Both the position numbers and the translations under genes were made by a program. Shown here in pieces: positions 9,484 to 32,058 of a stretch of DNA of 40,000 nt. Source of the DNA: Zeimonas sediminis (GTDB taxonomy: Bacteria; Pseudomonadota; Gammaproteobacteria; Burkholderiales; Burkholderiaceae_E); assembly GCF_023721795.1 (NCBI RefSeq), contig NZ_JAMQYE010000001.1, positions 2,351,671-2,391,670 of the forward strand, read 5' to 3'. The notes below the pieces were generated by a model. That model was not told the origin of the DNA and made no database searches. It was given only the letters and a program-made list of their open reading frames with translations. Numbering within the stretch: position 1 is the first letter of the stretch; each line of letters starts with the position of its first letter.

Positions 9484-10284
9484 TCAGGCCTTCCGGCGCT
9501 TTCCTGGCACCGCCGGCTCGACCACCCGCTCCAGCCTGCCCAGCGCGGCGTCGAAGCGGCGCAGTCGCTCGTCCTCGCCCTCGTCCGCCCGGACACCCAC
9601 GCCGCCGAGCACCACGGCGAGAATCTGGTCGGCCAGCGTCTCGACGTCGAGCTCCCCTTCCCCCGACAGGTAGCGCCAGGCATGGTGCTCGATGCACCCG
9701 AAGATCATGTCGCGGACCAGCCGGACCGGCGTGTCCCGCCTGAGCTCGCCCTTGGCGACCCCTTCCTCGATCGTCCTGCGCAGGAATGCCGAGTAGCGCC
9801 GGTTCAGGTCGCCGATGACCGCCTGGTACTCCTGGTCGTCGGTCCGCAGTTCGCGGATGATCAGCCGCATCAGGCCGGGGTCGTCGCGCAGCGCCCGCAG
9901 GTGCGACGAGATCAGGAAGCGCAGCCGGCTGCGCACCGAGCCGATCGCCGCGCACTCGCGCTCGAGTTCGGCGATCGTCTTCTCGTACCAGTCCGAGACC
10001 ACGCGCGTCAGCAGCTCGCGCTTGGACCGGAAGTACCGATAGATGTTGCCCTCGACGACGCCCACACGCTCGGCCACCTCGGCGATCGTCGCCGCCTCGT
10101 AGCCGACGCTCGCGAAGGTCTGCTGCGCTGCGGCGAGGATCGCCTCGTAGCGCTCGGCCTTCGGCAGGCGCCGCCGGACCGGGGCCGCGGCCGGCCCGCC
10201 CGGCCCGGCCGATCCGCCCGCCCCACCCGGCGCGCGATCCGCGCCGTTGCTTGCCTCGCCGTTTCGTTGCGCGCCGCTTGCCAT
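9484..10284 (-). CDS. TetR/AcrR family transcriptional regulator
   Basis: Start at ATG 10282-10284 within a longer shadow-extended ORF. The HTH reads ILAAAQQTFASVGYEAATIAEVAERVGVVEGNIYRYFRSKRELL. Confidence 0.85.
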   Translation of the reverse strand: MASGAQRNGEASNGADRAPGGAGGSAGPGGPAAAPVRRRLPKAERYEAILAAAQQTFASVGYEAATIAEVAERVGVVEGNIYRYFRSKRELLTRVVSDWYEKTIAELERECAAIGSVRSRLRFLISSHLRALRDDPGLMRLIIRELRTDDQEYQAVIGDLNRRYSAFLRRTIEEGVAKGELRRDTPVRLVRDMIFGCIEHHAWRYLSGEGELDVETLADQILAVVLGGVGVRADEGEDERLRRFDAALGRLERVVEPAVPGKRRKA

Positions 10285-10289
10285 GTCGG

Positions 10290-11066
10290 TCAGCGCGGCG
10301 GAAGACGAAAGGCGCCGTCCAGGCGCACGCATTCGCCGTTCATGTAGCCGCTCTCGCAAAGGAAGGCGCACAGGCCCGCGATCTCGTCGGGCGTGCCGAA
10401 GCGCTTCGGGAACTGGAAGTCCGAAGCGATCCGGCTCAGCACGCTGTCGGGAAGGCTCTTGATCATCGGGGTCTCGAATGCGCCAGGCGCGATTGTATTG
10501 ACCCGGATGCCGAGTTCGGCCAGTTCCCTGGCGGCGGGCAATGCCAGCCCCACCACGCCGGCCTTGCTCGACGCATAGGCAGACTGCCCCACCTGCCCAT
10601 CGAAGGCGGCGCCGGACGCGACGTTCACAACGACGCCTCGCTCGTTGTCGGCATCGGGCTCGTTCCGGGCCATCCACTCGACGCAGTGTGCCATCACGTT
10701 GAAGCTGCCCACCAGGTTGACCAGCACCGTGGCGCGAAAGCGCGCGCCGTTCGAGGCCCGGCCTTCCTTGTCGAGGATGCGCATCGGCGAGACCACGCCG
10801 GCGAAGTTCAGGCAGGCGTGGATCGCGCCGAAGGCCGCGGCCCCCGCGTCGATCGCGGCCGCGACCGCCGCTTCGTCGGTCACGTCGGTCTCGTGGAAGC
10901 GGCATGAGCCATCGCCCAGTTCGTCGACGAGCTCGCGACCGCCGGCCGCGTTCCTGTCGAGCACCACGACGCGCGCGCCCTTCTCCCGGACCATGTAGCG
11001 CGCTGTGCCACGCCCCAGGCCCGAGGCGCCCCCCGACAGCACCACCACCTTGCCCGCGAGATTCAT
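10290..11066 (-). CDS. SDR-family oxidoreductase (3-hydroxyacyl-CoA dehydrogenase-like)
   Basis: 258 aa from ATG 11064-11066. Cofactor motif SGGASGLGRG; catalytic YASSK; ...IRVNTIAPGAFETPM. Confidence 0.85.
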   Translation of the reverse strand: MNLAGKVVVLSGGASGLGRGTARYMVREKGARVVVLDRNAAGGRELVDELGDGSCRFHETDVTDEAAVAAAIDAGAAAFGAIHACLNFAGVVSPMRILDKEGRASNGARFRATVLVNLVGSFNVMAHCVEWMARNEPDADNERGVVVNVASGAAFDGQVGQSAYASSKAGVVGLALPAARELAELGIRVNTIAPGAFETPMIKSLPDSVLSRIASDFQFPKRFGTPDEIAGLCAFLCESGYMNGECVRLDGAFRLPPR

Positions 11067-12307
11067 CGGTCTCGCCCGTAGATGCCGATGTGCGCGACCG
11101 ACTCCTCCACGCCCCAGATGCCGCCGCCGTTCTCCTGGACCGCGAGCCGGGCGGATTGCACTTGCCGCAGCCCGCACTCGCCCCGCAGCTGCGAGACGAT
11201 CTCGAAGACCTGTCCCAGGCCGGTCGCACCGATCGGATGACCCTTTGACTCGAGGCCGCCCGACGGATTGATCGGGATCCGGCCCCCGATGGCCGTGGCG
11301 CCGCTTTCGGCCAGCCGGCCGCCTTCGCCGAGCGCGCACAGACCGAGGTCCTCGGACTGCATCAGCTCACCCATCGCGGTCGCGTCGTGGACCTCGGCCA
11401 GATCGATGTCCTCCGGGCCGACACCGGCAGCCTCGTAGGCGTCATTGGCCGCAAGCCGGGTCAGGTGCTGCGCCAAGTCCTCGGGGTCGCGCGCCGAGGC
11501 CGACCGGACCACGCTCGCCAGCACGCGGATCGCGCGGCTGCGGTCGAGCCCCAGGCGGTCCAGCGCCCGCCCCGTGCACAGCACCGCGGCCGCGCCGCCG
11601 TCCGAGATCGGCGAGCACATCGGCAGCGTCAGCGGGTACACGATCGGCGGCGCCGCCAGCACCTCGTCGATGCTCATCTCCTGCCGGAACTGCGCGCGTT
11701 CGTTGTGCACCGCATGCCGCCGGTTCTTCGAGGCGATCGCCGCCAGCTGCCGCTGCGTGATGCCGAAACGCCGGATGTACTGCCGCGCGAAGGATGCATA
11801 GACATCCATGAAGGGGCTGTACTGCGCCGGCGAGGTGGACCCCGGCGGCGCCTCGACCCCCTCGCCCATCGCCAGGATTCGCCGGTGGTTCTGCTCGGGC
11901 GTGTCGACGTCCCAGGCGGCATCGAAGATCGCGAAGCGCGTAGCCTTGTCCTGCACGAACATCTTGTCAGTGCCGACCGCCAGCGCAACGTCGCAGGCGC
12001 CCGAGCGCAGGTAGGCGATCGCGAGGTGAAGCGCAGTGCTCGCCGTGGCGCAGGCGTTCTCGACGTTGAACATCGGGATGCCCTGGAGCCCCAGCGGCAG
12101 CAGGGCCACCTGCGCCTTGACCAGGTGCTGCCCGTCGATCAGCCCCTGGGCGCAGTTGCCGTAGAACGCGGCCTGGACCTTGCGGGCATCGCAGCCGGCA
12201 TCGCGCAGCGCATCGCCGACCGCGAGCGCCGCGAGGTCCTTGACGCTCTTGTCGAGGTGCCGCGTGAAGGGCGTCATGCCGACGCCGACGATGTAGACGG
12301 GTTCCAT
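11063..12307 (-). CDS. thiolase-family acetyl-CoA C-acyltransferase (SCP-x-like)
   Basis: Start at ATG 12305-12307 (MEPVYIVGVGMTPF). Active-site region NVENACATASTAL; C-terminal NPSGGLESKGHPIGATG. The stop overlaps the SDR start by 4 nt. Confidence 0.85.
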   Translation of the reverse strand: MEPVYIVGVGMTPFTRHLDKSVKDLAALAVGDALRDAGCDARKVQAAFYGNCAQGLIDGQHLVKAQVALLPLGLQGIPMFNVENACATASTALHLAIAYLRSGACDVALAVGTDKMFVQDKATRFAIFDAAWDVDTPEQNHRRILAMGEGVEAPPGSTSPAQYSPFMDVYASFARQYIRRFGITQRQLAAIASKNRRHAVHNERAQFRQEMSIDEVLAAPPIVYPLTLPMCSPISDGGAAAVLCTGRALDRLGLDRSRAIRVLASVVRSASARDPEDLAQHLTRLAANDAYEAAGVGPEDIDLAEVHDATAMGELMQSEDLGLCALGEGGRLAESGATAIGGRIPINPSGGLESKGHPIGATGLGQVFEIVSQLRGECGLRQVQSARLAVQENGGGIWGVEESVAHIGIYGRDR

Positions 12308-12339
12308 CCGCTCTTTTCCTTGTCTCGGCGCCCGATGCC

Positions 12340-13206
12340 TCAGCGCCCAATGAACCTGGGTTGCCGCTTCTCGACGAAGGCCGCCGTGCCTTCCCGCATG
12401 TCGTAGGACCTCATGTGATTGCGCAGCTCGAGCATCTCGTGCCTCAGCGCGTCGTCGAAGGACTTGTCGTTCGCCTCGTTTGCCACCCGCTTCATGCGCG
12501 CGAGCAGCAGCGGGCTGCGCTGCGCGAGCTCGTTTGCGAGCGACTGCGTTCGCCCGTGGAGCGCGTCCGGCGCGATGATCTCGTTGACTACACCGAGCGC
12601 CTTCCACTCCTCGACGCCGAGCAGCTGGCCCGTGAAGAGCAGCTGCTTGGCCAAGTTCAGCGGGATTCGCCTGGGAAGCCCCACCGACGAACCGCCGCCC
12701 GGGAAGATTCCGAAGTTCGAGTGGCCGTCACCGATCCGCACGCCTTTTGCCGCGACGACAAGATCGCAGCACAGGATCATCTCCAGTCCGCCGCCCACCG
12801 CCACGCCGTTCACGCTCGCGATCACCGGCTTGGGCATACCGCGGAGGATGCCGAAGGTCCGGAAGACGCGATCGAGGTAGTCCCCGTCGGCGGCGTCGCC
12901 GCGGCTCGTGGCCTCGTCACCAAGCTCGCCATTCGGGTCGCCGTTCAGCTCGCCGGACAGCGCCTTGATGTCGCCGCCCGCGCTGAACGCGCGCCCGGAA
13001 CCGGTCAGCACGACGACCCTGACCGCGTCATCGGCCCTCGCCGCCTCGAGCCGGTCCGCCAGCTCGTCGAGCATCTGCCGGCTCAGCGCGTTCAGCGTGG
13101 ACGGGCGGCTCAGCCTGAGCCAGGCGACGCGGTCAACCACCGAGTAGTCGACTGCGGGCCCCGTTTCAGCATCCGCGAGGGCCGCCACCTCAGGAGCCTC
13201 GCTCAT
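12340..13206 (-). CDS. enoyl-CoA hydratase/isomerase family protein
   Basis: 288 aa from ATG 13204-13206. VVVLTGSGRAFSAGGDI...NGVAVGGGLEMILCCDLVVAA are crotonase signatures. There is a D/G-rich insertion between them. Confidence 0.85.
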   Translation of the reverse strand: MSEAPEVAALADAETGPAVDYSVVDRVAWLRLSRPSTLNALSRQMLDELADRLEAARADDAVRVVVLTGSGRAFSAGGDIKALSGELNGDPNGELGDEATSRGDAADGDYLDRVFRTFGILRGMPKPVIASVNGVAVGGGLEMILCCDLVVAAKGVRIGDGHSNFGIFPGGGSSVGLPRRIPLNLAKQLLFTGQLLGVEEWKALGVVNEIIAPDALHGRTQSLANELAQRSPLLLARMKRVANEANDKSFDDALRHEMLELRNHMRSYDMREGTAAFVEKRQPRFIGR

Positions 13207-19988: not shown

Positions 19989-20869
19989 TCTCCGTCGCGC
20001 AAATCACGCGGCCGCGCGCCGGCGGACGGGGTACCCGTCTACCTCGACGTCTCGGGCTCGAGGGAGAGCCCAATCGCGCTGGGCCTCTGCGAGCGCGAGC
20101 ACCGCCACCTCTCCGACGACCAGGCGATCTGCATCGGCTACGCCAACACGATGGCCGACACCAACCACCTACCGCCCGCCCACTGGCTGGCCAACCGGAT
20201 CGGCCGCGAGCTGTTCCGCCTGCGGCTGGAGAAAGGCGCCGGCCAGTTCGGCCCCGACGGCAAGGTGCTGGCGCAGGTGCGCACCGACGGCCACGGCCGG
20301 CAGCCCGAGCGCGTGTCGATCTCGCTGCACAACCACGAAGGCTCCGACTGGTTGCTGCTGCGCAGGATCGCCGAAGAGGCGGTGGCCCGCGCCTGCGCCG
20401 GCAAGAACATGCCCGCGCTGGTGCTGAACGGCGCCGGCATGTTCGTGGCCGGCGGCCCGAACGGCGACAACGGCACCACCGGCAAGAAGCTGGTGATGGA
20501 CGCCTACGGCCCCACGGTGCCGATCGGCGGCGGCGCCTGGTCGGGCAAGGACTTCAGCAAGGTGGGCCGGGCCGGGGGGATGCTGGCGCGGGAGCTGGCG
20601 CTGGTGGCGGTAAGGCGGGCGAGGAGGGAGGCGCGGGTGGAGTGGAGGTACGAGCCGGGTGGGGCGGGGCCGGCCGGGGTGGGGGTTTGGGTGGATGGCC
20701 GGGCAATAGGGTCGGCAGAGATGTGGACGCTATCGGGAGCCGCCACTATGACTTCGGTGTCGCGCGAAGGTTGATTGCCGAGCTCAACGGGCCACTGGCA
20801 GAAAGGGGACGATGGGAGCATTTCAACGCGGTCACCACCAGTGATCGAGGCCGACGGCACGCCGCATGA
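19965..20869 (+). pseudogene. S-adenosylmethionine synthetase (MetK)-like gene lacking the N-terminal domain and probably frameshifted near its 3' end
   Basis: The frame-3 translation runs from the stop at 19962-19964. It reads ...DDQAICIGYANTMADTNHLPPAHWLANRI...GAGMFVAGGPNGDNGTTGKKLVMDAYGPTVPIGGGAWSGKDFSKVGRAGGMLARELA. This aligns by eye with the E. coli MetK middle and C-terminal domains (GDQGLMFGYA...[41 protein letters not shown]). No room or sequence exists for the first ~85 aa. After ~20720 the MetK-like signal seems to continue in frame 2 (...YDFGVARRLIAELNG...) up to 20869. Confidence 0.45.
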
Positions 20870-21118
20870 GGGCCCGACTGGAGATCAAGAGACGTCGTCG
20901 CGCCGCCCGCCTGATGCTCGCGGGACCACGTGGGTACCGCCCTCTGGGCGGCTGCGATCGTCGCATGTGGCCAGGGCACCCATCGGTAGGCCTCTGAAGC
21001 GCCTAGCCTGTAGTTACTAATCCGTTTGTTCAGACTTCGTCCCGCAGTTATTGGCCAAGTCAGAAGCGCATCAGTTACACTAATCGGAATCGATTACTCT
21101 GCTTGTGAAACTGCTGCG

Positions 21119-22057
21119 ATGTCCGGTGACTATGTCGTGGTCACAAACTGCACCGCGCGCAAGCGGGCCGGTGCTCCGCTGGTCCGCTTCGACCCGAAGC
21201 CATCGGCCGCCGCGCTCTCCGAGATCGTCGAGGAATGGCGTTCGGCGCTGCGTTCACAACCCGTGCGCTTGCCTGCGAAGGAGCTCTATGTCGGCCGCTC
21301 GATCAGCGAGGCGAAGTGCGTTGCTCAACAATTGCGATGTTCGCTCTTCGTCGTGTCCGCCGGCCTCGGACTGGTCGAAGAAGATGAGATGGTGCCGGGC
21401 TACGACCTTTCCGCCGCTGGCGCCACCTCCGGCTTGACGCCGGTGTTGGCCCGTCACGGCGCATCCGTCGGCGAGTGGTGGAACACCCTAACTGACGGCC
21501 GCGGATTGCGCTGGTTGCTTCAGCGCGCCTCGGGAGCAGTCGTTCTCCTGGCACTGCCTACGGACTATCTTCGACTCGTCAAGGGGGAACTGCAGGAAAT
21601 GCAGCCCGGCGAGATCTCTCGGCTTCGTGTACTTACATCCGAAGCTGGTCGTAGGGAGTTAGCCACTCTCCCCGCTTTACCAGTGATGCCTTATGACGAC
21701 CGACTGGAGTCGATTCCTGGCCTTGCGGGAACTCGGTCGGACTTTCCTCAACGTGCCCTCCGTCACTTCACCGAGCGCCTTGAAGCTCACAGGCTACCAG
21801 CAGACGTGGCTACCCGAGAGGTGCTGCTCGCCTTGGCTAGATGCGAACACCGAGTTCTCCCGCAGCGAGCACGACTGAACGACGAGGAGATTTGCGGCCT
21901 AATCCGCAGCGGTTGGCCGACGTTCGGCGGGAACAGCGCACGACTATTACGCCATCTCCGAGACGACCACAAAGTCGCGTGCGAGCAGGGGCGCTTCGCT
22001 GCCTTGCGGCGCCGCGTCCAACAGGAACTCGTTGAGAGCTCTGCTGCCTCAGGGTGA
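21119..22057 (+). CDS. uncharacterised protein, first gene of the deazaguanine-modification operon (N-terminus reminiscent of DUF6884-type domains)
   Basis: Start placed at ATG 21119 within ORF 21026..22057. YVVVTNCTARKR...AKELYVGRSISEAK...LFVVSAGLGLVEEDEMVPGYD resembles the CSxxK / elY / ilSAkyGL / PYD pattern I recall for DUF6884. The C-terminal ~130 aa is unrecognised. It ends 4 nt before the next gene. Confidence 0.6.
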   Translation: MSGDYVVVTNCTARKRAGAPLVRFDPKPSAAALSEIVEEWRSALRSQPVRLPAKELYVGRSISEAKCVAQQLRCSLFVVSAGLGLVEEDEMVPGYDLSAAGATSGLTPVLARHGASVGEWWNTLTDGRGLRWLLQRASGAVVLLALPTDYLRLVKGELQEMQPGEISRLRVLTSEAGRRELATLPALPVMPYDDRLESIPGLAGTRSDFPQRALRHFTERLEAHRLPADVATREVLLALARCEHRVLPQRARLNDEEICGLIRSGWPTFGGNSARLLRHLRDDHKVACEQGRFAALRRRVQQELVESSAASG

Positions 22058-22061
22058 CAAC

Positions 22062-23204
22062 ATGGCAACTTCAAAGAAGGGAAGGGAAATTGTCATTCGC
22101 GCTCTGCGGACAAGGCAGGGCCCGGGTCTAGACGTCTACGCATTCTTCATTCGCGGCTCGGACATCATTCGCGTGGCCGACATTTCGCGTATCGGACGAG
22201 ACGAACAAGAAGGACTGAAAGGCTTTCAGCGACCGGAGATCCGCACTCATGTGCGCAGCATCGTGGAGTATCTCAATCAAGGCAGCGTGCTGTTTCCGAA
22301 CGCCATTATCCTTGCCCTTTCGCCCGAGGTTCATTTCGCCGCGTCCCGCGGCACCCGTCCGTCCGGTGACGAAGGCATCGCCCAGAGCGGCACCTTGACC
22401 ATCCCGATCTATGAAGAGGGGCGGCGCGTAGCTTGGATCGTTGACGGTCAGCAACGCTCGCTCGCCCTCGCACAGACAGAACGGAAAGACATCTCCGTTC
22501 CCGTCGTTGGGTTCGTTTCCGACAGCCTGGAAGTCCAACGCGAGCAGTTCATCCTCGTTAACAAAGCGAAGCCTCTACCCACGCGTCTCATTAACGAGTT
22601 GCTGCCCGAGACGCGGTCAGTGCTTCTCCCACGGGAACTCAGTGTTCGGCGAGTGCCTGCGGAATTGTGCGGCCTTCTCAACAGAGACCCTGCATCGCCA
22701 TTCTTCGGGCTCATCAAGCGCCCGTCCGATGACTCTCGCGACCGCAATTCTGTCGTCACCGACACGGCGGTTATAAACGTCATCAAGAACAGCATGAACA
22801 ATCCACTGGGCGCCTTGGCCACCTTCCGCCTTAGCTCGAACGGGCGCGATGGCGTCGATGTCGAAAGCATGTACGCCCTATTGGTGACTTTCTGGTCGGC
22901 GGTAAAAGTTGTGTTTCCGGACGCGTGGGGCCGTGACCCGCGCCATAGCCGCCTGATGCACTCCGCGGGCATCGAAGGAATGGGCGTGCTAATGGACCGC
23001 ATCTACGCACGGCTTCAGCCCAGCGCCGACGTTAAAGCCGTCGAGAGCGAATTGCGTAGGGTCGCGCCCTACTGCCGCTGGACAAAGGGTGTCTGGGATA
23101 GCCTCGGGCTGGCGTGGAACGAAATCCAGAGTACGCCGCGCGATATTCGACGTCTGCAGAATGCACTGGTCCAGGCCTACTCGGCAGCAGGGGCCGCGCG
23201 TTGA
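22062..23204 (+). CDS. DGQHR-domain (DndB/DpdB-like, ParB-fold) protein, paralog 1
   Basis: 380 aa from ATG 22062. Motifs present: LKGFQRPEIRTHVRSIVEYL, FPNAIILAL, WIVDGQQRSLAL, QFILVNKAKPLP. Confidence 0.8.
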   Translation: MATSKKGREIVIRALRTRQGPGLDVYAFFIRGSDIIRVADISRIGRDEQEGLKGFQRPEIRTHVRSIVEYLNQGSVLFPNAIILALSPEVHFAASRGTRPSGDEGIAQSGTLTIPIYEEGRRVAWIVDGQQRSLALAQTERKDISVPVVGFVSDSLEVQREQFILVNKAKPLPTRLINELLPETRSVLLPRELSVRRVPAELCGLLNRDPASPFFGLIKRPSDDSRDRNSVVTDTAVINVIKNSMNNPLGALATFRLSSNGRDGVDVESMYALLVTFWSAVKVVFPDAWGRDPRHSRLMHSAGIEGMGVLMDRIYARLQPSADVKAVESELRRVAPYCRWTKGVWDSLGLAWNEIQSTPRDIRRLQNALVQAYSAAGAAR

Positions 23205-24493
23205 AGTTCCTCTATTCCGACACCCAGGATTACGTCGACCCAAAGTACGACTTCCTTAACGACCGCCCGAACCCAAAGCGTGAACGGTACTGGAACGACG
23301 CCTACGCGCATGAACTCATGCGCGAGGCACCCTACGACGGCCTCCTTGTGGCTATGAGCGCAGTGCGCCAAGCCGAGGGCGTCGCTTCGTCGAAAGTGCG
23401 CTACTCGACAGCCGAAGAGCAGCGAATGCTGCGCATCGGCGCCCGAAAGTACCTGCGCTTCGATGGGCCGAAGTTCAAGGATCTGATGCTGATGGGGGAT
23501 TGCGGTGCATTCGCGTACGCGGAGCACCCCCAACCCGCCTACTCGCCAGAGGAAGTGGTCGAGTTCTACCTGGACGCCGAGTTCACACACGGGGTCTCGC
23601 CTGACCACATCATCTTTGAGTGCGACTTGGAGAATCCGCCAGCGAGCGCTATGCCCGAGGCTCAGCGGCGATTTGAGATCACGCTGGAGAACGCCCAAGA
23701 GTTCATCAAACTCGTCCACCAGGAGGGTGACTTCTTCGAGCCAATGGGTGCCGTTCAGGGTTGGTCGCCGCAGAGCATGGCCGACGCTGCCGACAAACTC
23801 GTCAAGATGGGATACGGCTACTTGGCAATCGGCGGACTCGTTCCACTGAAAGTAGACGTTATCAAAACGGTGCTGGAGGCCATCAGGAACAAGATCGGCC
23901 CGGAGCCAAGGCTTCACCTGCTCGGCTTTGCGAAGGCTGATCATATTCATCAGTTCGTCCGCTACGGCATTACCAGTTTCGACTCGACCTCGCCGCTTAT
24001 CCGTGCCTTTAAGGACGACAAGGCCAATTACTACATCGAGAACGGCGAAGGCGGTTTGGACTACTACACTGCAATCCGCATCCCACAGGCTCTCGAGAAC
24101 AGCCGACTGATGCAGGGCGTCAAGCGCGGTTCGTTCAGCGCTGAAGACCTTGCCAAGCGAGAACGGGTCGCCCTTAAAGCGTTACGCGACTTCGATCAAG
24201 AGCGGGGCAGTATCCAGGGGACCGTGGATGCCGTAATGGACTATCACCAGTTCCTAGTCTTGGGTGAAGGGGGCGACGAGAGCGCTCACGCCAAGGCGTT
24301 GTCCAAGATCCGCGAGCGCGTGCAGCGCACACTCGAGGCCCGCCCGTGGAAACGGTGCGATTGCGCAATCTGCGAGGCCGTGGGCGTGGAAGTCATCATC
24401 TTTCGTTCCAGCAACCGGAACAAGCGACGTGGATTCCACAACCTTGGCGTTTATCACCGACACCTGAAGAGAACCCTGGAGCATTCCGCGTGA
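23201..24493 (+). CDS. dpdA: DpdA-type (TgtA5) DNA-guanine transglycosylase
   Basis: Start placed at TTG 23201, which overlaps the upstream stop (TTGA) and is preceded by AGCAGGGG. This gives MKFLYSDTQDYVDPKYDF..., a DpdA-like N-terminus. TIM-barrel-like segments are present: GYGYLAIGGLVPL, LHLLGFA, TSFDSTSP. The C-terminal TGT-type zinc motif is CDCAIC-x22-H. An upstream ATG at 23114 is an alternative start. Confidence 0.8.
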   Translation: MKFLYSDTQDYVDPKYDFLNDRPNPKRERYWNDAYAHELMREAPYDGLLVAMSAVRQAEGVASSKVRYSTAEEQRMLRIGARKYLRFDGPKFKDLMLMGDCGAFAYAEHPQPAYSPEEVVEFYLDAEFTHGVSPDHIIFECDLENPPASAMPEAQRRFEITLENAQEFIKLVHQEGDFFEPMGAVQGWSPQSMADAADKLVKMGYGYLAIGGLVPLKVDVIKTVLEAIRNKIGPEPRLHLLGFAKADHIHQFVRYGITSFDSTSPLIRAFKDDKANYYIENGEGGLDYYTAIRIPQALENSRLMQGVKRGSFSAEDLAKRERVALKALRDFDQERGSIQGTVDAVMDYHQFLVLGEGGDESAHAKALSKIRERVQRTLEARPWKRCDCAICEAVGVEVIIFRSSNRNKRRGFHNLGVYHRHLKRTLEHSA

Positions 24494-25563
24494 GCGTCTA
24501 TCAATACTCTGCAATCCGAGCACGCCAGGCTGCGGAGCATGACGTCTTCGTCTTCGCTGCGAACCCCAAAGAGGTACTGGAATTCGCGCAGATCGAACGC
24601 GTTGGACGCTCGGACGATGGGCAACTCAAGGGATTTCAGCGGCATCAGATCGCATCGCATATCCGCGATATCCGAGACTATCTGAGCCGCGCAGATGCGC
24701 TTCTGCCCAACGCTGTGATTGTGGCCTTTATCGAGGGGGTGACAGTCAGGGACGTCGGCGACGGGCGGCTGGAAGTGTCAATTGACGCCCGCAAGACCCC
24801 TCCAGGATTTGTCGTCGACGGACAGCAACGCCTAACTGCGCTTTCTGGGCTGGACAAGCCAGATTTCCAGGTGTTCGTATCTGCCGTCGTGTGCAAGAAC
24901 TACGACGAGCTTCGCCAGCAGTTCGTACTCATCAACAGCACTCGGCCGCTCCCCAAGACCCTGATTTACGAGCTACTGCCAACTGTTGAGGGCCTGCCGC
25001 AGCGGTACACGTCGCGCCGCTTTGCGGCCAGGGTGGTAGAGCGACTCAATTTCACCGGCGGCCGGGCACTGCGCGGCGAGATTCGTCAACACACCAATCC
25101 ATCCGGTGTCATCAGTGACACGGCCATGCAGAAACTCGTGATGAACTCGGCCGCGCACGGCGCTATCCGCGAGTTCATCCAATACGAAGATCGTGAAGAT
25201 CGTGCCGTCTCCCTAATCAACGAGTTCTTCGAAGCTGTAGCCACGGTATTTGGCGGCCAGTGGGTCGGCATGAGTCCACGCGTTTCGCGTCTTCGTCATG
25301 GAGCGGGGATCGTCGCCATGGGCTTTGTGATGGATCTGCTCCACTCCTCCCAGGGGGCGACCACCAAAGATGGCTTCGTGCCCGGGCTCGAATTGCTCAA
25401 ACCCTTTACGGCTTGGACCTCTGGCACTTGGAAGATGGACGACTGCGAGTTTGTCTGGAACGACATTCAGAACACTCCCTCCGACATCGACCTCCTTACG
25501 CGTCATCTCGTGTCAGCCACAAAGCGGCAGCTTCGCAAACTGCGTCGGGCCGCCAACGCTTGA
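24490..25563 (+). CDS. DGQHR-domain (DndB/DpdB-like) protein, paralog 2
   Basis: Start placed at GTG 24490, which overlaps the dpdA stop (GTGA) with GGAG 10-13 nt upstream. Motifs present: LKGFQRHQIASHIRDIRDYL, LPNAVIVAF, FVVDGQQRLTAL, QFVLINSTRPLP. It is colinear with paralog 1. Confidence 0.8.
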   Translation: MSVYQYSAIRARQAAEHDVFVFAANPKEVLEFAQIERVGRSDDGQLKGFQRHQIASHIRDIRDYLSRADALLPNAVIVAFIEGVTVRDVGDGRLEVSIDARKTPPGFVVDGQQRLTALSGLDKPDFQVFVSAVVCKNYDELRQQFVLINSTRPLPKTLIYELLPTVEGLPQRYTSRRFAARVVERLNFTGGRALRGEIRQHTNPSGVISDTAMQKLVMNSAAHGAIREFIQYEDREDRAVSLINEFFEAVATVFGGQWVGMSPRVSRLRHGAGIVAMGFVMDLLHSSQGATTKDGFVPGLELLKPFTAWTSGTWKMDDCEFVWNDIQNTPSDIDLLTRHLVSATKRQLRKLRRAANA

Positions 25564-25569
25564 ATAGTC

Positions 25570-26277
25570 ATGAGCACTTCCGCACTCGTCTTGTTCTCCG
25601 GCGGTCAGGATTCCGCCACGTGCCTTGCATGGGCGTTGGACCGTTATGACTTCGTCGAGACGGTGGGCTTCGACTATGGTCAACGGCACAGGGTTGAAAT
25701 GGAGTGCCGAGAGATCTTTCGAAGCGAACTGCGGAGTCACTTCCCTGCATGGGGCGGGAGACTTGGCGATGACCACCTTCTGGATCTAGGACTTCTTAGC
25801 CGAATTAGCGACACAGCACTCACCGCCGAGAAGCAGATTGAGTTCGACGAATCAGGGCTTCCGAATACGTTTGTTCCAGGCCGCAATCTCTTGTTCTTCA
25901 CTCTGGCCGCCGCGATTGCCTACCGTCGCGGCCACAAGATCCTCGTGGGCGGGATGTGCGAGACTGACTATTCGGGCTATCCGGACTGCCGCGACGACAC
26001 GCTCAAAGCTCTTCAGGTAACACTGAATCTTGGTTTGAACTCTCGCCTTGTCGTTGAGACCCCGCTTATGTGGATCGACAAGGCCCGCACGTGGACACTC
26101 GCCCAACAACTTGGCGGAGACGCGCTAGTTGCCCTCATACGAGAGAAGACGCACACCTGCTACCTGGGCGATCACGAGACTTGGCATGACTGGGGCTATG
26201 GCTGCGGGACTTGCGCGGCCTGCGAATTGCGTCTCAGAGGCTATGAGGCATTCGCCCGCGAGGAGGGAGCCAAATGA
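25570..26277 (+). CDS. queC: 7-cyano-7-deazaguanine (preQ0) synthase QueC
   Basis: 235 aa. PP-loop [12 protein letters not shown]; also [18 protein letters not shown]. The C-terminal zinc-site cysteines are C...CGTCAAC. Confidence 0.9.
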
Positions 26278-27371
26278 ACCAACCGGTTATTGTGACCCAG
26301 GCGACGGCGGGGTTTGAGGCGGCGCGCCAAGTGGACGTATTACCCGAAGGACATCGGTGTCGCTCACTGCACGGCCATAGCTTTCAGGCCACTGTGTTCG
26401 CTGAACTGCCAGAAGGCTTTGCCGCTTATCCAGGCGGCGAAGTCGACGCACTTAGCGCCCGTCTCGACGAGTGCGTGTCTCAGCTGAACTATGCGTATCT
26501 CAATCGTGTGATGCCGCAACCTACCGATGAGAACATCGCGCGATTCCTCCGTGAACAGTTGAGGATTCCGGGTATCGATCGTGTCGCGATCCAGAGTACG
26601 ACAATGCAGGGAGTGGATCTGAATCGGGAGGGACAGGCCCACGTGTGGCGGCGATTCCGATTTCAAGCAGCACACCGACTTCCGAACGTACCGCTAGGGC
26701 ACAAGTGCGGCCGAATGCATGGCCACGGTTTTGAGGCGATCATCCACGCAAACCAAGACCTTGGAACTCGTCCATTAAGCACTGACTACGACCACCTTGA
26801 TTCCGTGTGGGCACCGTTGCACGCGCAACTTAACTACCAGTGCCTAAATGAAATCGAGGGCCTCGAAAACCCAACTAGCGAGAACCTGGCCGGGTGGATC
26901 TGGCGGCAACTGAAGCCCGCACTGCCCGAGCTATCTTGGGTGACCGTTTTTGAGACGGCATCTTGTGGTGCGCACTTCGACGGCGAGAACTACCGCATCT
27001 GGAAGGAATTCACACTCGATAGCGCCGTGCGTTGCGAGCGCGCCCCGGAAGGCTCAGATCGTAACCGTACGCACGGTCACACTTATACGCTTCGACTCCA
27101 CCTTGACGCACCACTGAACGAGATCCTCGGTTGGACCGTCGACTTCGGTGACGTCAAGACCATCTTCGACCCAATCTTCAAGTCTATCGACCACCAGATG
27201 CTCAATGGGCTCCCGGGATTGGCTGACGGGAACGCGGCCAGCGTGGCACGATGGATTTTGGATCAGGCCCGACCAAAACTTCCTCACCTCTCCCGCGTCG
27301 ATCTTCACGAAACCCCCGGCACCGGTTGCCTCATAGCAGATAACCTCGACGGTCCGACAATGCCGGTCTGA
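26274..27371 (+). CDS. queD: triple-tandem QueD / 6-carboxytetrahydropterin synthase (PTPS-fold) protein
   Basis: 365 aa, ATGA overlap with queC. It has three ~115-aa modules (about aa 8-118, 124-238, 241-355). Module 2 is close to E. coli QueD: [26 protein letters not shown]...[15 protein letters not shown]...FETASCGA. Modules 1 and 3 are degenerate copies. Confidence 0.8.
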
Positions 27372-27594
27372 CCAACACTAAAGGCTGATTTCGCGAGGAA
27401 ATAACACATCACTTACCTCGACTACCTGGAGTTGTAGCCACAGCGACCTTCTAGCCGACCCGAATGAGAATCATGCGGGGAGTCACGCCACCACCTACCT
27501 CGACCTCCACTGCTGCCAACATACGGGTACTTGACACCTGCACACCAGTGTCAAAGCCAACAAGAGTCGCTACCTCCGTTCTCGATCATCTCTG

Positions 27595-28500
27595 CTAACC
27601 CCCTTCTCGACCTGGCACCTGCCGCCCTTTTTCCCTCGGACTCCAGTCCACCGACAAAGGTGCCACCATTCTTTCCCTTATACAAGCCTGACACATCGTC
27701 GAGCAATTCGCCGGAATACTCAAGCCCGTCCGCACTCGCTTATAGACAAAAAGCTCAGCGTAACTCGGCGAAACGCCGCATCCATCACACTTGCCATCGC
27801 GGCACAGAACGATCCACCGATGGGTTAGCCCGATCTGCCCGACCGCCTGAAAATCATTTCGCTCAAAGAAATCGAACGCAAACTGGGATGTAGCCCACGA
27901 AAGGAGATCGCGCTTGCCCGCATTGCACGACAAACAGGCAATCGCCCAGTTCTTCGCCTCCGGTGGGTCATCACCGATGTGCTTGGGCAACATATGCTCC
28001 AAGCTCTCTTCAACGTTGGGATCACTAAAGAGCGCCCCGCACCAAATACAACGCCCACCTTGCCTTCCCATAACCTTTGTGTACAACGGGTAGTCCGACT
28101 TAAGCGTACCGATCTTCGCCACCTGCGCCCTCGCGGCAGTTGCTGTCAGACCCCGAAGTTTGGCGATATTAATGATCAGATTACGAAGTTCCGCTTTGCT
28201 TTCGCTCGAGATCTGAATACCCAATTCTCCCAGATGCTCGTCGATAAGGGCGTCGTAACTCACGTTTGCAGGCGCGTGCAACGCCTTCTCCGGAATCAGC
28301 GTAAACAATATAGAGTGCCGAATTGCCGGTTCTAGACCGGCAGTGAGACTTTCCAAGGGTTTCCCCAAGGTTCGCGCCCAATCCACCAAGGCAGCGAAAA
28401 GAGTCGGCCACGAATCTGATCTGCCCCTTACGCCCTCCAAGAAATAAGTGTCACTTCTGAGCACCTGGGACACGAGGGAATTTAAGATCTCGCTCGACAT
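27595..28500 (-). CDS. HNH endonuclease-domain protein with extra C-terminal Cys cluster
   Basis: 301 aa. HNH core at aa 151-196: CIWCG...SLEHMLPKHIG...NWAIACLSCNAGK. Second cluster: CRDGKCDGCG...CSTMCQAC. The N-terminal ~140 aa is unrecognised. Its start lies 12 nt after the stop of the upstream DGQHR gene. Confidence 0.75.
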   Translation of the reverse strand: MSSEILNSLVSQVLRSDTYFLEGVRGRSDSWPTLFAALVDWARTLGKPLESLTAGLEPAIRHSILFTLIPEKALHAPANVSYDALIDEHLGELGIQISSESKAELRNLIINIAKLRGLTATAARAQVAKIGTLKSDYPLYTKVMGRQGGRCIWCGALFSDPNVEESLEHMLPKHIGDDPPEAKNWAIACLSCNAGKRDLLSWATSQFAFDFFERNDFQAVGQIGLTHRWIVLCRDGKCDGCGVSPSYAELFVYKRVRTGLSIPANCSTMCQACIRERMVAPLSVDWSPREKGRQVPGREGG

Positions 28501-28512
28501 TTCTTTTTCTTC

Positions 28513-30009
28513 TCACTTGAACCAAGAATCGGCCTTCCAATTTTTCGCAACGCGCCCTTCTATCTTCCCGTCATTGATGAGTTTAGATAGCAGCTTGCGC
28601 AATTCATCTCTACCCTGATTAGTATCAAGACTAACCTTCTCCCAGGGCACGCTCCACATGTCGACCGGGACATACGCCAAGTTCGTGCGGACCACGTCCT
28701 CAAATGCCACCCTGAGCGATTCCACCCTCTCCTCCATCGACGCCTCTGGAGCAACTTTCCAGTGCGACTTCATTTGCCCGTCGGCCTCTATGAGAAGCGC
28801 TTCCTGCAGAGCCCACAGACTGGCACCAATGAAGAATCTGTTCCCCTCGTATTTCTTCCAGTAACTGTTTGGATAATGATCCCGGACAATTCCCCAAAAT
28901 AAGCAGAAAAAGTCAAACCAAATTTTACTGGAACGCCACTCGCTTCGGGCTTTATTTGCATTTTCGGTGGAGAACAGGCTCTTCGCAATTTGAACGAAGG
29001 AGTTGCGCTGGGCCGTGTACCACACCTTCGCTACGCGCTTAATGGCGGCATACCCCAGGAGATCGCTTTTTGCGGATTTTTCTCCGACACCCATGTCAAT
29101 AAAGTTGCTGAATGGGCTCTGGTCATCATAAGCAACCATACTCATGATTTCCACTTCGGTCATCTTGACGCCAGCCTGATTTAACCTACCCCGCAACTGT
29201 GATTGCTCAACCTTCGACAGACTCAGCGCGGCAATTGAAGTTATCAGCGAGGGAGGAATCTTCTTAGGCTTGATGTTTACCACGGTGAACTGGAAAACCT
29301 GCTCCGACCATGTCGCGTCGTAAAGACCGCAGACCATAAACGGCAATCCTTTCGGTCCAAATTTTGCTCCCGCGGAAATCCTGTGTTGGCCATCGATCAC
29401 CATTGCCGGTTTTACGTAGTCCGCGATCGCGTCTCGAAAGGCCGGATTGACCCAGTTCTCTTTATCCCTTAGGAGATCTCGCATCTTGGCAAGCGTTTCG
29501 GTGCCGAGATGAACGGAGATGTCTGTGGCGCCGCCGTTTTCTTCCTCGTCTTCAATCTCGTCAAGATCTTGGTCATCGTCTTCCGAAACCTCCTCTTCCG
29601 ATTGTTCAGCGTCTGCGCCCAAACGTTGTTCAATATAAGAAAGGGCTTGCTCGAAGATCGCGTCAGTTTTCATGGCGTCTTCGTCCATCTCGATCTCTAA
29701 TTGGGTCTCGACGACTTCGCCAACGGGCATCTCGGTGTTTGCGAGGACACATCTTCCAATGCCGGTGTCCGCACGGAGCGCAATGATGACTGCGGTGGGA
29801 CTGCAGTTAGCCGGGTTCTGGAAGAACGGTACGATCGAGCGATTGATGCGGTCGTCGTCCTTAAATCGCTGATAACCAGTGAGCAACTCGTCGGACTTTC
29901 GAGGGATTCCGGCCCATGTCAAGACGTCACCCGCGTTTGCAACGAATGCAACCTGAATCGGTGACTTGGCCTGCTGGCGAAAGGCGAAGACTGAGTAAAC
30001 CAGTTTCAT
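28513..30009 (-). CDS. divergent DGQHR-domain protein (paralog 3) with acidic insertion
   Basis: 498 aa. Motifs present: LTGYQRFKDDDRINRSIVPFF, PTAVIIAL, MVIDGQHRISA, QFTVVNIKPKKIP. It carries a 25-aa acidic run EQSEEEVSEDDDQDLDEIEDEEENG and a long Trp-rich C-terminal domain. Confidence 0.75.
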   Translation of the reverse strand: MKLVYSVFAFRQQAKSPIQVAFVANAGDVLTWAGIPRKSDELLTGYQRFKDDDRINRSIVPFFQNPANCSPTAVIIALRADTGIGRCVLANTEMPVGEVVETQLEIEMDEDAMKTDAIFEQALSYIEQRLGADAEQSEEEVSEDDDQDLDEIEDEEENGGATDISVHLGTETLAKMRDLLRDKENWVNPAFRDAIADYVKPAMVIDGQHRISAGAKFGPKGLPFMVCGLYDATWSEQVFQFTVVNIKPKKIPPSLITSIAALSLSKVEQSQLRGRLNQAGVKMTEVEIMSMVAYDDQSPFSNFIDMGVGEKSAKSDLLGYAAIKRVAKVWYTAQRNSFVQIAKSLFSTENANKARSEWRSSKIWFDFFCLFWGIVRDHYPNSYWKKYEGNRFFIGASLWALQEALLIEADGQMKSHWKVAPEASMEERVESLRVAFEDVVRTNLAYVPVDMWSVPWEKVSLDTNQGRDELRKLLSKLINDGKIEGRVAKNWKADSWFK

Positions 30010-30498
30010 TGTAGGAGTCTCGATAGTTGGACTGGGTTGAGATTCAAAGCCAGCGTAGAACGCGGCGCCCTAAATTGAATGTGAATGCAGTTACGACTGC
30101 AGATGTTCTTTTAAAGGAAACCGGGTTCACCGTCACCTTGTAACCGGGCAAAACCAGTTGCGGAAAATAGTTGTCGAGCACTTGTGACCTCTGGCTTCGA
30201 AAGCTCCTTTGCTTCTAACGCGAAAACGGAACCCTGTGGCCTCGAGCACTCAGATGTAAGGGAACCACACGGGCTCCTCTAACCCACCGAGCAACGCGAT
30301 TGCGCAACCTTCCGATCTAGTCAGAAGTAGGCGGGATATTCGCAATGGCCGTCAAGGTGGACATGGGGCTTAGCCAAGAGAGGGGACCAGGCCCTCGCTT
30401 GGGACCATTCTTGATTTGGCGCACGAGGTGGCAAATCAGATCCTCCGTGCGCTCACACAGACAGACCCGTGGGCGCGTTCTTGGCGCGACTGGTCGCG

Positions 30499-32058
30499 TC
30501 ACCTGTCGGATGCGAGGAACCTGGCCAACACCACCATCGCCCACGTATCCATCGCGCAGTACCTCCTCAGCGCCCCCTCCAGCTCCGCCCGCCTCGCCTC
30601 GCCGGTCTCCGGGGCGATCGCCTCCAGGTACGCCGCCTGCGCAGCCGCGCCGTGCTGCACTTCGTCGAGCAGGCCGTAGTCGACCCCGCCGGGGATCGTG
30701 GGCAGCACCGCCTTGATCGAGCGCGAGCCGCACATGTCGGGGTGGTAGTAGTGCGCGCGCACCAGCGGCAGCAGGTCCACCAGGCGCCGGGCGATCCGGT
30801 TGAGCGGCCTTGCCAGGTCGGGGAACTCGCCGGCGAGCGCGCGCAGCACGCTGCGCTCGAAGCCGGCGTTGTAGACGATGACCGGGCCTGCGGCCGGCAG
30901 CTCGCGCGCGAGCGCTTCGGCGCAGGCGCGGCGCGGGTCGGCGCCGCTCAGGTCCAGGAAGGCGGCTTCGCGCACCTGGCCTTCGTCCGACGGCCCTTCT
31001 TCTGATGACCCTTCTCCCGGCGGCCCTTCCTCGATCTGGCACGACCACTGGAACGGCAGCTGCTGGTAGGGCCGGGTACCGGGCCACTGGGGCACGGCGA
31101 AGCCGATCGTTTCGAAGTCCAGGTAGGCGCGCGGCCAGCCCAGCCCGGCGAGCTTCTCGGCGGCCTGCGGCTCGAGCAGCGGCGCGCCTTCGCGGGTGAC
31201 GCGGGCGATCATGGCCAGCTCGGGGTCTTCGATGCGCCCGGGCGGTACGCTGCGCAGGTCATCAAAGCCTTCGGCCAGCAGCTGGGCGGCCAGCTTCTTG
31301 CCCTTGGTATTGGGCAGCAGCGTGACCGGGTACTCGGGCTGCGGGCCCGCTAGACGCGCGCAGTGCGCCTGGAACGGGCAGTCGAAGGGCGAGCGGCACT
31401 GCTCGCCCATCGCGATGGCGGGCTCGTCGCCCTGCAGGATGCGTTCGGCCTCGCGCACCCAGCGCGGCACCTGGTCGAGCAGCGGCTCGGTGGCGGCGGT
31501 GAGGTCCTCGCGCGCGAACAGGCCCGCGTAGTCGGAGCCGCCGGGCCAGATCCAGCTGGTGTCCACGTGCCACTGCTCCACGCCTGCCAGCGGCGCCAGG
31601 GGGCCGGCCGCCCAGGAGTCGTCCTTCAGCTGCCCCTGCAGCACCCAGCGCTGGATCGCCACGTCGGCCAGGTGGTAGTCGCGCACCGAGCTGGTCGACT
31701 TGACCTCGGCGAGCCGCCAGCCGCCGGGCGCGGGCAGCAGCAGGTCGGCGCGCACCAGCACGCCGTCGCGCTCGAAGGTGGCCTCGTAGAGCGGGCGGCG
31801 CGGCGCGGCGGCGAGCAGCTCGCGGGTGAGGCGCAGCGCCTCGGCCAGGTCGGGCCGGTCGGTGCCGGGCACGCGCGGGTCGATCAGCGTGCCGCCGGGC
31901 GCCAGCGTGCGCGCGACCTCGCCCACCCGGTGGCCGGCGGCGAATACCAGCTGGGTGACGGCCGAGTCTTCGCGCAGCTCGGGGTGGCGGACCTGCAGCC
32001 ACAGGCGTTTGGGGCACTGCTGCAGGTCTTGCAGGCGGGATTTGGAGAGGCGGGGCAT
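30499..32058 (-). CDS. DUF2779-type protein: Cas4/RecB-like PD-(D/E)XK nuclease with Fe-S cysteines fused to an RNase-H-fold exonuclease-like domain
   Basis: 519 aa. The N-terminus SKSRLQDLQQCPKRLWL plus ...RADLLL...WRLAEVKSTS and CRSPFDCPFQAHC gives four Cys, as in Cas4/AddB. The C-terminal half reads YLDFETIGFAVP...IVYNAGFERSVL...YCAMDTWAMV. Confidence 0.7.
   Translation of the reverse strand: MPRLSKSRLQDLQQCPKRLWLQVRHPELREDSAVTQLVFAAGHRVGEVARTLAPGGTLIDPRVPGTDRPDLAEALRLTRELLAAAPRRPLYEATFERDGVLVRADLLLPAPGGWRLAEVKSTSSVRDYHLADVAIQRWVLQGQLKDDSWAAGPLAPLAGVEQWHVDTSWIWPGGSDYAGLFAREDLTAATEPLLDQVPRWVREAERILQGDEPAIAMGEQCRSPFDCPFQAHCARLAGPQPEYPVTLLPNTKGKKLAAQLLAEGFDDLRSVPPGRIEDPELAMIARVTREGAPLLEPQAAEKLAGLGWPRAYLDFETIGFAVPQWPGTRPYQQLPFQWSCQIEEGPPGEGSSEEGPSDEGQVREAAFLDLSGADPRRACAEALARELPAAGPVIVYNAGFERSVLRALAGEFPDLARPLNRIARRLVDLLPLVRAHYYHPDMCGSRSIKAVLPTIPGGVDYGLLDEVQHGAAAQAAYLEAIAPETGEARRAELEGALRRYCAMDTWAMVVLARFLASDR

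Follow-up and report, generated by a model that had tools for sequence, protein, structure and literature searches.

Does a two-gene unit at positions 27595 to 30009 of a 40-kb stretch of the Zeimonas sediminis genome supply the restriction arm of a DNA-modification island in which the usual restriction genes were not found? The stretch, hereafter the window, is the whole 40,000 nucleotides (nt) that we analysed (contig NZ_JAMQYE010000001.1, positions 2,351,671 to 2,391,670), and its island carries genes of the Dpd type. In that system, DpdA and the ATPase DpdB insert preQ0 into DNA and DpdC converts preQ0 to ADG; DpdB is a ParB-fold NTPase that resembles SspE without SspE's EHxxP nicking motif, and no specific roles are known for DpdD-K (PMC10164549). 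The two-gene unit encodes a 498-amino acid (aa) protein with a DGQHR motif, which we call DGQHR-long, and a 301-aa candidate HNH nuclease, and a first-pass annotation of the window had proposed that this pair replaces DpdD-K. We lean towards reading the pair as the restriction (effector) arm of a compact restriction-modification system of the Dpd type. The evidence that we count for this is the obligate pairing of the two genes, their co-inheritance, the dpd context in which they are found, the absence of DpdD/H/J/K-like matches in the window, an intact HNH site, invariant NTPase-type motifs with firm homology to DpdB, an E-H-x-x-P segment in the HNH partner, and the published pairing of DGQHR/DUF262 domains with HNH-type nucleases.

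The layout of the unit is as first described: the open reading frame (ORF) list places the 498-aa gene and then the 301-aa gene on the minus strand, pointing toward a plus-strand modification operon that ends at 27371, and the two genes are separated by a purine-rich spacer of 12 nt (28501-28512, minus strand; TGA gaagaaaaagaa ATG). We surveyed 101 unique loci encoding a relative of the 498-aa protein, drawn from five contig look-ups, 19 species-representative genomes and 80 metagenome contigs (individual loci are cited below by L numbers). With a family hidden Markov model, the HNH partner was found directly downstream and on the same strand in all 74 loci whose downstream sequence reached 1 kb or more (tblastn alone detects it in 66 of the 74), and in related loci the two genes are separated by gaps of 4-100 nt or overlap by up to ~40 nt. 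The two genes co-vary in identity to the window protein (Spearman 0.65, n = 47, p = 1e-6), a crude correlation, like the other divergence correlations given below, as every identity is measured to one reference. The two genes form one obligate, conserved module and are probably translationally coupled. Carriers of the pair span at least 10 phyla, and the family is small: of 1.84 billion cluster representatives, 231 match at E ≤ 1e-30. The most divergent subfamily sampled, whose proteins are longer (594-615 aa), retains the HNH partner and, where the flank sufficed (P0264), the dpdB-dpdA-dpdB neighbourhood as well. One pair lies on a Bradyrhizobium plasmid, where RefSeq names dpdA and both dpdB copies and labels the pair 'hypothetical'.

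The first gene of the unit (28513-30009, minus strand; GenBank M6I34_11265, 100% identical at the protein level) had been called a third, much longer DGQHR protein of the island, and the comparisons bear this out: we regard its product as a divergent DpdB/DndB-family (ParB-fold) protein and a candidate NTPase and DNA sensor. DGQHR-long misses both curated cutoffs (58.2 bits for NCBIfam DpdB, cutoff 300; 45.7 bits for DGQHR TIGR03187, cutoff 58.85) and has no Pfam match, including to DndB and DUF262 (PF03235), at E ≤ 1. Alignment to DpdB/DndB with hhalign gave a probability of 99.1% (E = 4e-19, 283 columns), in BLASTP the QR region at its N-terminus and the DGQHR region both aligned with the two DpdB copies of the island, and Q47-R48, DGQHR (206-210, in the segment MVIDGQHR at residues 202-210) and FxxxN (F241, N245) are invariant in 42 homologues. 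The QR, DGQxR and FxxxN motifs are signatures of the DGQHR/GmrS domain (PMC4619093). Judged from its sequence alignments, DGQHR-long is clearly homologous to DpdB/DndB despite its sub-cutoff scores.

The first-pass annotation had also given DGQHR-long a C-terminal domain of its own, and this part did not hold: relative to DpdB, most of the extra length is an internal insertion of ~100 residues (~110-200), in which helices surround an acidic disordered stretch (137-164), and the remainder is a divergent C-terminal tail. The acidic, predicted-disordered segment 137-164 (EEEVSEDDDQDLDEIEDEEE) is variable but present across the family; a DNA-mimic or autoinhibitory role for it would be pure speculation. 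An AlphaFold 2 (AF2) model of the protein reached a predicted local distance difference test (pLDDT) score of 86; when it was compared with the PDB by Foldseek, nothing was returned at E ≤ 0.001, and ParB, PadC and sulfiredoxin appeared at probabilities of 0.03-0.15. The A1 profile, compared with the PDB, returned low-complexity acidic matches only.

The second gene (27595-28500, minus strand) encodes a candidate nuclease of the H-N-N, CxxC...CxxC type. Taken alone, the window protein scores 17.9 bits against Pfam HNH (PF01844), under the gathering cutoff of 21.4; in a family set of 25 sequences (the window protein and 24 partners from related loci and the protein database), PF01844 is matched by 25/25 members (best E = 4.7e-11) and DUF1524 by 0/25 at E ≤ 0.1. 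Eight residues are invariant in the 25 members (C151, C154, H169, N184, C189, C192, N193 and K196), including the catalytic set H169/N184/N193, so that the HNH core recognised at first pass is intact across the family, and residues 168-172 form an E-H-x-x-P segment. The family profile matches the HNH domains of Cas9, IscB-like and group II intron maturase structures in the PDB (best E = 5e-6), with no SspE or BrxU chain among the matches. Because of the family-wide PF01844 matches, the invariant residues and the PDB profile matches, we assign the 301-aa protein by sequence to the classical zinc-finger H-N-N nucleases, and not to DUF1524.

Two further features of this protein had been pointed out. 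An additional Cys cluster (C238, C241, C266, C270, C273) is indeed fully invariant in the close clade, but across the family C238 alone is nearly invariant. The N-terminal ~140 residues, described as unrecognised, are helical and conserved, with P70 invariant, and matched no Pfam family. The GenBank version of the gene (M6I34_11260) is 237 aa long and thus short by 64 N-terminal residues; these 64 residues are conserved in all close homologues, with W41, E57, P58 and R61 invariant, and on account of that conservation the 301-aa reading is likely to be the actual product. Models of Septu PtuB and of retron-associated HNH proteins gave matches to the HNH core only (the window protein scores 11-17 bits, and the best-scoring relative 27.8 bits), and no PtuA or retron gene is adjacent to the window pair.

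Several loci carry variants of the pair or unusual neighbours. In a Polyangia metagenome-assembled genome (DATJWP010000197.1; L010:11469-13112), the HNH partner is fused C-terminally to a Ser/Thr protein kinase domain, and a UvrD-like helicase lies between the kinase-fused HNH gene and the dpd genes; in Cystobacter fuscus (L003), a separate Pkinase gene stands beside the island. On the Bradyrhizobium sp. 41S5 plasmid pB41S5 (L106:10337-15914), a diverged pair is separated from dpdB-dpdA-dpdB-queE by genes for a PD-(D/E)XK nuclease and a DEAD/DEAH helicase, dinB and ku genes are found nearby, and the annotated DGQHR-long of 371 aa appears truncated or mis-started. In a metagenome contig with a member of the long subfamily (615 aa; Ga0335049_0001004, L107:4942-10836), the pair is preceded on its own strand by a gene for a 987-aa protein without a Pfam match, and upstream there is a reverse-transcriptase gene; a second contig has the same layout.

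The genomic context of the pair is dominated by deazaguanine genes. DpdA was found in 36 of the 47 loci for which the flanks total 6 kb or more, nearly always in a dpdB-dpdA-dpdB' arrangement with or without dpdC, queC and queD; of the 11 loci without DpdA, 6 are flanked on one side only and 2 (L011, L015) have other dpd genes. By this count, homologues of the pair do not occur mainly outside deazaguanine loci. As had been noted at first pass, no recognisable Dpd restriction gene was found in the window: DpdD, DpdH, DpdJ and PLD/DpdK-like queries taken from L011 gave 0 tblastn matches in the 40 kb (DpdE/F/G/I were not queried directly), and all island ORFs could be assigned to functions other than DpdD-K. 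Ten large unassigned neighbour ORFs at nine of the loci where no DpdD/H/J/K-like gene accompanies the pair were also scanned, and no Dpd equivalogue was found among them. Across the loci, the pair stands in the place of DpdD-K mostly, not strictly, with DpdE/F/G/I again outside the direct queries.

The pair and the modification operon can also be told apart by composition and by history. Guanine-plus-cytosine (GC) content is 0.51-0.53 over the pair (28-30 kb), 0.58-0.61 over the plus-strand operon (21-27.4 kb) and ~0.70 in the flanks, which makes the pair the lowest-GC part of the whole window, as first reported, and since both values fall below those of the flanks we conclude that ~21.0-30.3 kb is an acquired island of which the pair is the most foreign part. 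DpdA and DpdB diverge in step with each other (rho 0.53), but the divergence of the pair shows no correlation with that of either DpdA (rho -0.15) or DpdB (rho -0.20). In three loci (L008, L022, L023), DpdA is 65-66% identical to that of the window and DGQHR-long only 23-31%, and two loci (L002, L003) show the reverse pattern. The uncorrelated divergence and the GC step within the island point to two separate cassettes, the pair and the modification operon, which have recombined repeatedly.

We propose the following sequence of events for a pair that acts as the restriction arm. DpdA, DpdB and DpdC would write dPreQ0/dADG into host DNA, by precedent from Salmonella (PMC10164549); DGQHR-long would load on DNA via nucleotide binding or hydrolysis at its QR/DGQHR/FxxxN site and sense the modification state of that DNA; and the HNH partner would cut DNA that is unmarked. 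In the pair itself, a distant paralogue of DpdB retains the nucleotide-site motifs, and the E-H-x-x-P/N/N centre (168-172, N184, N193) belongs to an obligate, separate partner. Pairing, conservation and context were observed directly in the loci described above; mark sensing, target choice and a defence phenotype are what we infer from them. The logic would be that of SspE with SspABCD, and the domain pairing that of GmrS/GmrD, here split in two proteins and built from other families.

Likenesses to known systems are accordingly of several kinds, and each comes with differences. With Dpd of Salmonella Montevideo (dpdA-K), the island shares DpdA, DpdB, DpdC, preQ0 genes, an acquired region and a linked candidate nuclease arm; it differs in that the tested DpdD-K genes were not found in the window, in that the candidate effector has two genes instead of eight, and in that DpdB is duplicated. 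SspE is a modification-sensing NTPase-nuclease and the partner of SspABCD. Like SspE, the window pair is a candidate effector tied to a DNA-modification module and joins a ParB-like NTPase with DGQ(Q/H)R to a His-Me nuclease with an EHxxP-type motif; unlike SspE, it consists of two polypeptides and not one, its partner modification is 7-deazaguanine, and its nuclease is a CxxC...CxxC HNH protein (PF01844), nearest among solved structures to Cas9/IscB, and not DUF1524, with no PDB match to SspE. GmrSD and BrxU (DUF262 + DUF1524) likewise combine a ParB-fold domain carrying QR, DGQxR and FxxxN with an E/D-H-N-N nuclease, and GmrS and GmrD also occur as split proteins (PMC4619093); however, neither protein of the pair has a Pfam DUF262 or DUF1524 match, which leaves the resemblance at motif level only, and GmrSD is stand-alone and modification-dependent, whereas the window pair is tied to a self-modification operon. 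By Pfam, the pair is not a member of the SspE or GmrSD families. DpdB and DndB, finally, are homologous to DGQHR-long over ~280 columns and have the same motif set, but DGQHR-long falls far below their family cutoffs, has a ~100-residue insertion with an acidic linker and another C-terminal tail, and always comes with an HNH partner, which DpdB and DndB do not. More broadly, DGQHR/DUF262 ParB-like domains are known partners of HNH-type nucleases in the vicinity of DNA-modification systems (PMC3632139, PMC4619093), and fusions of the two recur there (PMC3632139).

The first-pass annotation did not recognise the pair as a named defence system, and PADLOC v2 contains no model for it, giving weak DpdB-like or HNH-core matches only. 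A literature search found no paper naming the pair, although an earlier mention is not fully excludable, as the 2016 PNAS first description of Dpd islands was not covered. The GATOR-GC survey found additional dpdB copies in large numbers, as well as dpd islands that lack the restriction genes and contain 'HNH endonucleases and several hypothetical proteins', which it left uninterpreted (PMC12235509); its Verrucomicrobia LW23 island is our locus L012. Some of the dpd islands scored there as being without a restriction operon are explained by the pair, which adds an unnamed module to the catalogues of defence systems. As a two-protein candidate arm, it would be a far more tractable model for how 7-deazaguanine-marked DNA is told from unmarked DNA, and cultured carriers are at hand (Ideonella lacteola DXS29W, Cystobacter fuscus, Nannocystis exedens DSM 71 and Neobacillus pocheonensis), among which Ideonella lacteola has a 66%/57%-identical island; its main value would lie in a minimal, testable model of deazaguanine-guided restriction.

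A number of observations weigh against the pair being a Dpd restriction arm. DpdD/H/J/K-like genes stand beside it in 4/47 well-flanked loci (L011, L015, L065, L101), one of which (L015) has a DpdD-like gene and no DpdA, and a DpdD-like gene lies directly upstream of the pair on four short contigs. In Neobacillus pocheonensis (L011:54-9755), genes for DpdH, DpdJ (1830 bits), a PLD protein and DpdD (485 bits) lie directly upstream of the pair, and queC/D/E and a YhhQ-type (Vut_1) transporter gene lie downstream, with DpdA not within 10 kb; from this layout it follows that the pair can coexist with canonical Dpd restriction genes. Given such coexistence, the pair is no simple substitute for DpdD-K and could be accessory to either arm, and the proposal that it replaces these genes goes too far. 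One locus (L041) has queC only nearby, beside a serine recombinase. Another, in Candidatus Binatia (OZ246887.1, L018:5119-17347; DGQHR-long at 9983-11479, HNH at 11483-12406), ties the pair to dnd (phosphorothioate) and not to dpd: the pair adjoins dndB (511 bits), dndC (578 bits) and dndD (545 bits), and on its other side are a DndD-like ATPase and a dnd_restrict_1-like helicase. The decoupled divergence fits a portable cassette and is no positive sign that the pair reads the deazaguanine mark. The sensor role of DGQHR-long is without structural support, its ParB-like Foldseek matches being sub-threshold, and the AF2 model of the HNH protein (8 sequences) was too poor, at pLDDT 55, and was left unused. 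The link to 7-deazaguanine that had been proposed stands as the dominant context and not as an exclusive one, with one genome carrying the pair beside dndB/C/D.

Such loci raise the possibility, which we hold tentatively and consider clearly less probable than a Dpd-specific restriction arm, that the pair works as a portable reader-nuclease cassette for chemically unrelated marking systems: 7-deazaguanine mostly, phosphorothioate in L018, and perhaps N6-methyladenine in a metagenome contig (Ga0307986_10000966, L092). In the last of these (L092:1699-6569), homologues of the pair (557 aa + 260 aa) lie ~1.5 kb from a D12-class N6-adenine DNA methyltransferase, and no dpd genes were found within 10 kb downstream. 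Coupling in such a cassette would perhaps be via DpdB/DndB, for example by ParB-like nucleotide-gated heterodimerisation, and not via one specific mark. If true, this would amount to a general adaptor principle for building restriction-modification from DNA-modification modules, and it would provide a two-gene handle on the policing of deazaguanine marks.

Kinship with the modification proteins suggests a second alternative, in which the pair assists or regulates the modification arm: DGQHR-long would select sites or control dpd expression as DndB does for dnd, the HNH protein would nick for base exchange or repair, and there would be no restriction at all. DGQHR-long is a DpdB/DndB homologue, DpdB acts in modification (PMC10164549) and DndB is a regulator (PMC5699537); moreover, where canonical DpdD/J/K genes stand beside the pair, as they do in several loci, a second restriction arm would seem redundant. 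Yet Salmonella DpdA and DpdB suffice for preQ0 insertion in vitro, and DpdC converts independently, with no HNH protein described (PMC10164549). The islands already have two bona fide DpdB copies, the divergence of the pair is decoupled from that of DpdA and DpdB, and the pair is also found with dnd, which has its own DndB. A nuclease site that is invariant in 25/25 members is, besides, more typical of an effector. We consider the accessory role unlikely.

We judge it a shade less likely still that the pair acts on its own as a Type IV (modification-dependent) nuclease like GmrSD/BrxU, directed against other modified phage bases and merely sharing a mobile island with dpd. A ParB-like DGQxR protein with a His-Me nuclease follows the GmrS/GmrD logic, which can be split in two proteins (PMC4619093), the pair has its own GC content (0.51-0.53 vs. 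0.58-0.61) and its own evolutionary history, and other defence genes lie near some loci, such as one for an MzaE-like AIPR protein in L014. A nuclease of this kind would be expected to scatter over many defence islands, yet dpdA/dpdB adjoin the pair in 36 of the 47 loci that are informative, with carriers in at least 10 phyla; Pfam gives no sign of DUF262 or DUF1524, and deazaguanines in the host's own DNA would narrow the possible targets.

Least probable of all is a toxin-antitoxin or abortive-infection module, in which an HNH toxin restrained by the DGQHR protein (possibly via the acidic insertion) would be released on infection or island loss and addiction would stabilise the island. The tight layout of close or overlapping genes, the conserved acidic disordered segment 137-164, the mobile islands (low GC, a plasmid copy, recombinases nearby) and the proposal that COG1479/DGQHR proteins are programmed-cell-death modules linked to modification systems (PMC3632139) speak for it, but it leaves unexplained the specific tie to dpd (once dnd) over other mobile elements.

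The island of the window in which the candidate restriction arm lies is ~9 kb long and has eight genes. The plus-strand operon begins with a dpdC of the DUF6884 type (21026-22057; PADLOC DpdC 282 bits, Pfam DUF6884 24.7 bits, and no NCBIfam DpdC match at E ≤ 0.01), followed by a first copy of dpdB (22032-23204; NCBIfam DpdB NF041060, 459 bits, cutoff 300) and by dpdA, encoding the DNA-guanine transglycosylase (23114-24493; NCBIfam NF041059, 539 bits, cutoff 200; PADLOC DpdA also 539 bits); the start codons of these last two genes are mechanical calls. A second copy, dpdB' (24346-25563; NCBIfam DpdB 373 bits, cutoff 300), is 34% identical to the first (BLASTP E = 4e-57), and NCBIfam/Pfam scans identified the next gene as queC, for preQ0 synthesis (25570-26277). 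The operon ends with a queD of 365 aa (26274-27371) that has three tandem PTPS domains, seen as three matched stretches with Pfam PTPS and TIGR03367. A triple-PTPS QueD is also found in Ideonella (L001) and in L023, and in L008 it is apparently interrupted; in most other islands QueD has a single domain. By curated scores the island is a Dpd modification module, yet it carries no dpdD-K gene as far as tested.

Between the modification operon and the pair lies a convergent intergenic region of 223 nt (27372-27594), where a search for terminators gave none convincing. Upstream of the pair, a non-coding region (30010-30498, minus strand) forms the right edge of the low-GC island, with GC climbing past ~30.3 kb; a single weak sigma-70-like match in it (30434-30407) is not above chance expectation. 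At the island ends we found no tRNA, no integrase and no convincing att-like direct repeats, and no promoters or terminators above chance. A phage origin of the pair was considered and rejected, as there were 0 matches in 50,697 phage records and one weak viral-contig match only.

Just outside the left island edge, at 20151-20774 on the plus strand, lies a 207-aa ORF with host-like GC, which corresponds to the C-terminal domain only of S-adenosylmethionine synthetase (PF02773, 56.7 bits). On the other side, a gene for a DUF2779/PD-(D/E)XK protein with weak Cas4-like similarity (30499-32058, minus strand) adjoins the pair. We considered this protein as a third component and rejected it for now: its GC is host-like, at 0.74, it is missing from most loci, and it is also unrelated to the PD-(D/E)XK gene of the Bradyrhizobium plasmid. 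DUF2779-like fragments occur at island flanks, at either end, in two metagenome loci (L026:3992-4381 and L058:2-346), and the presence of DUF2779 genes at these islands may reflect a shared insertion site or a loose association.

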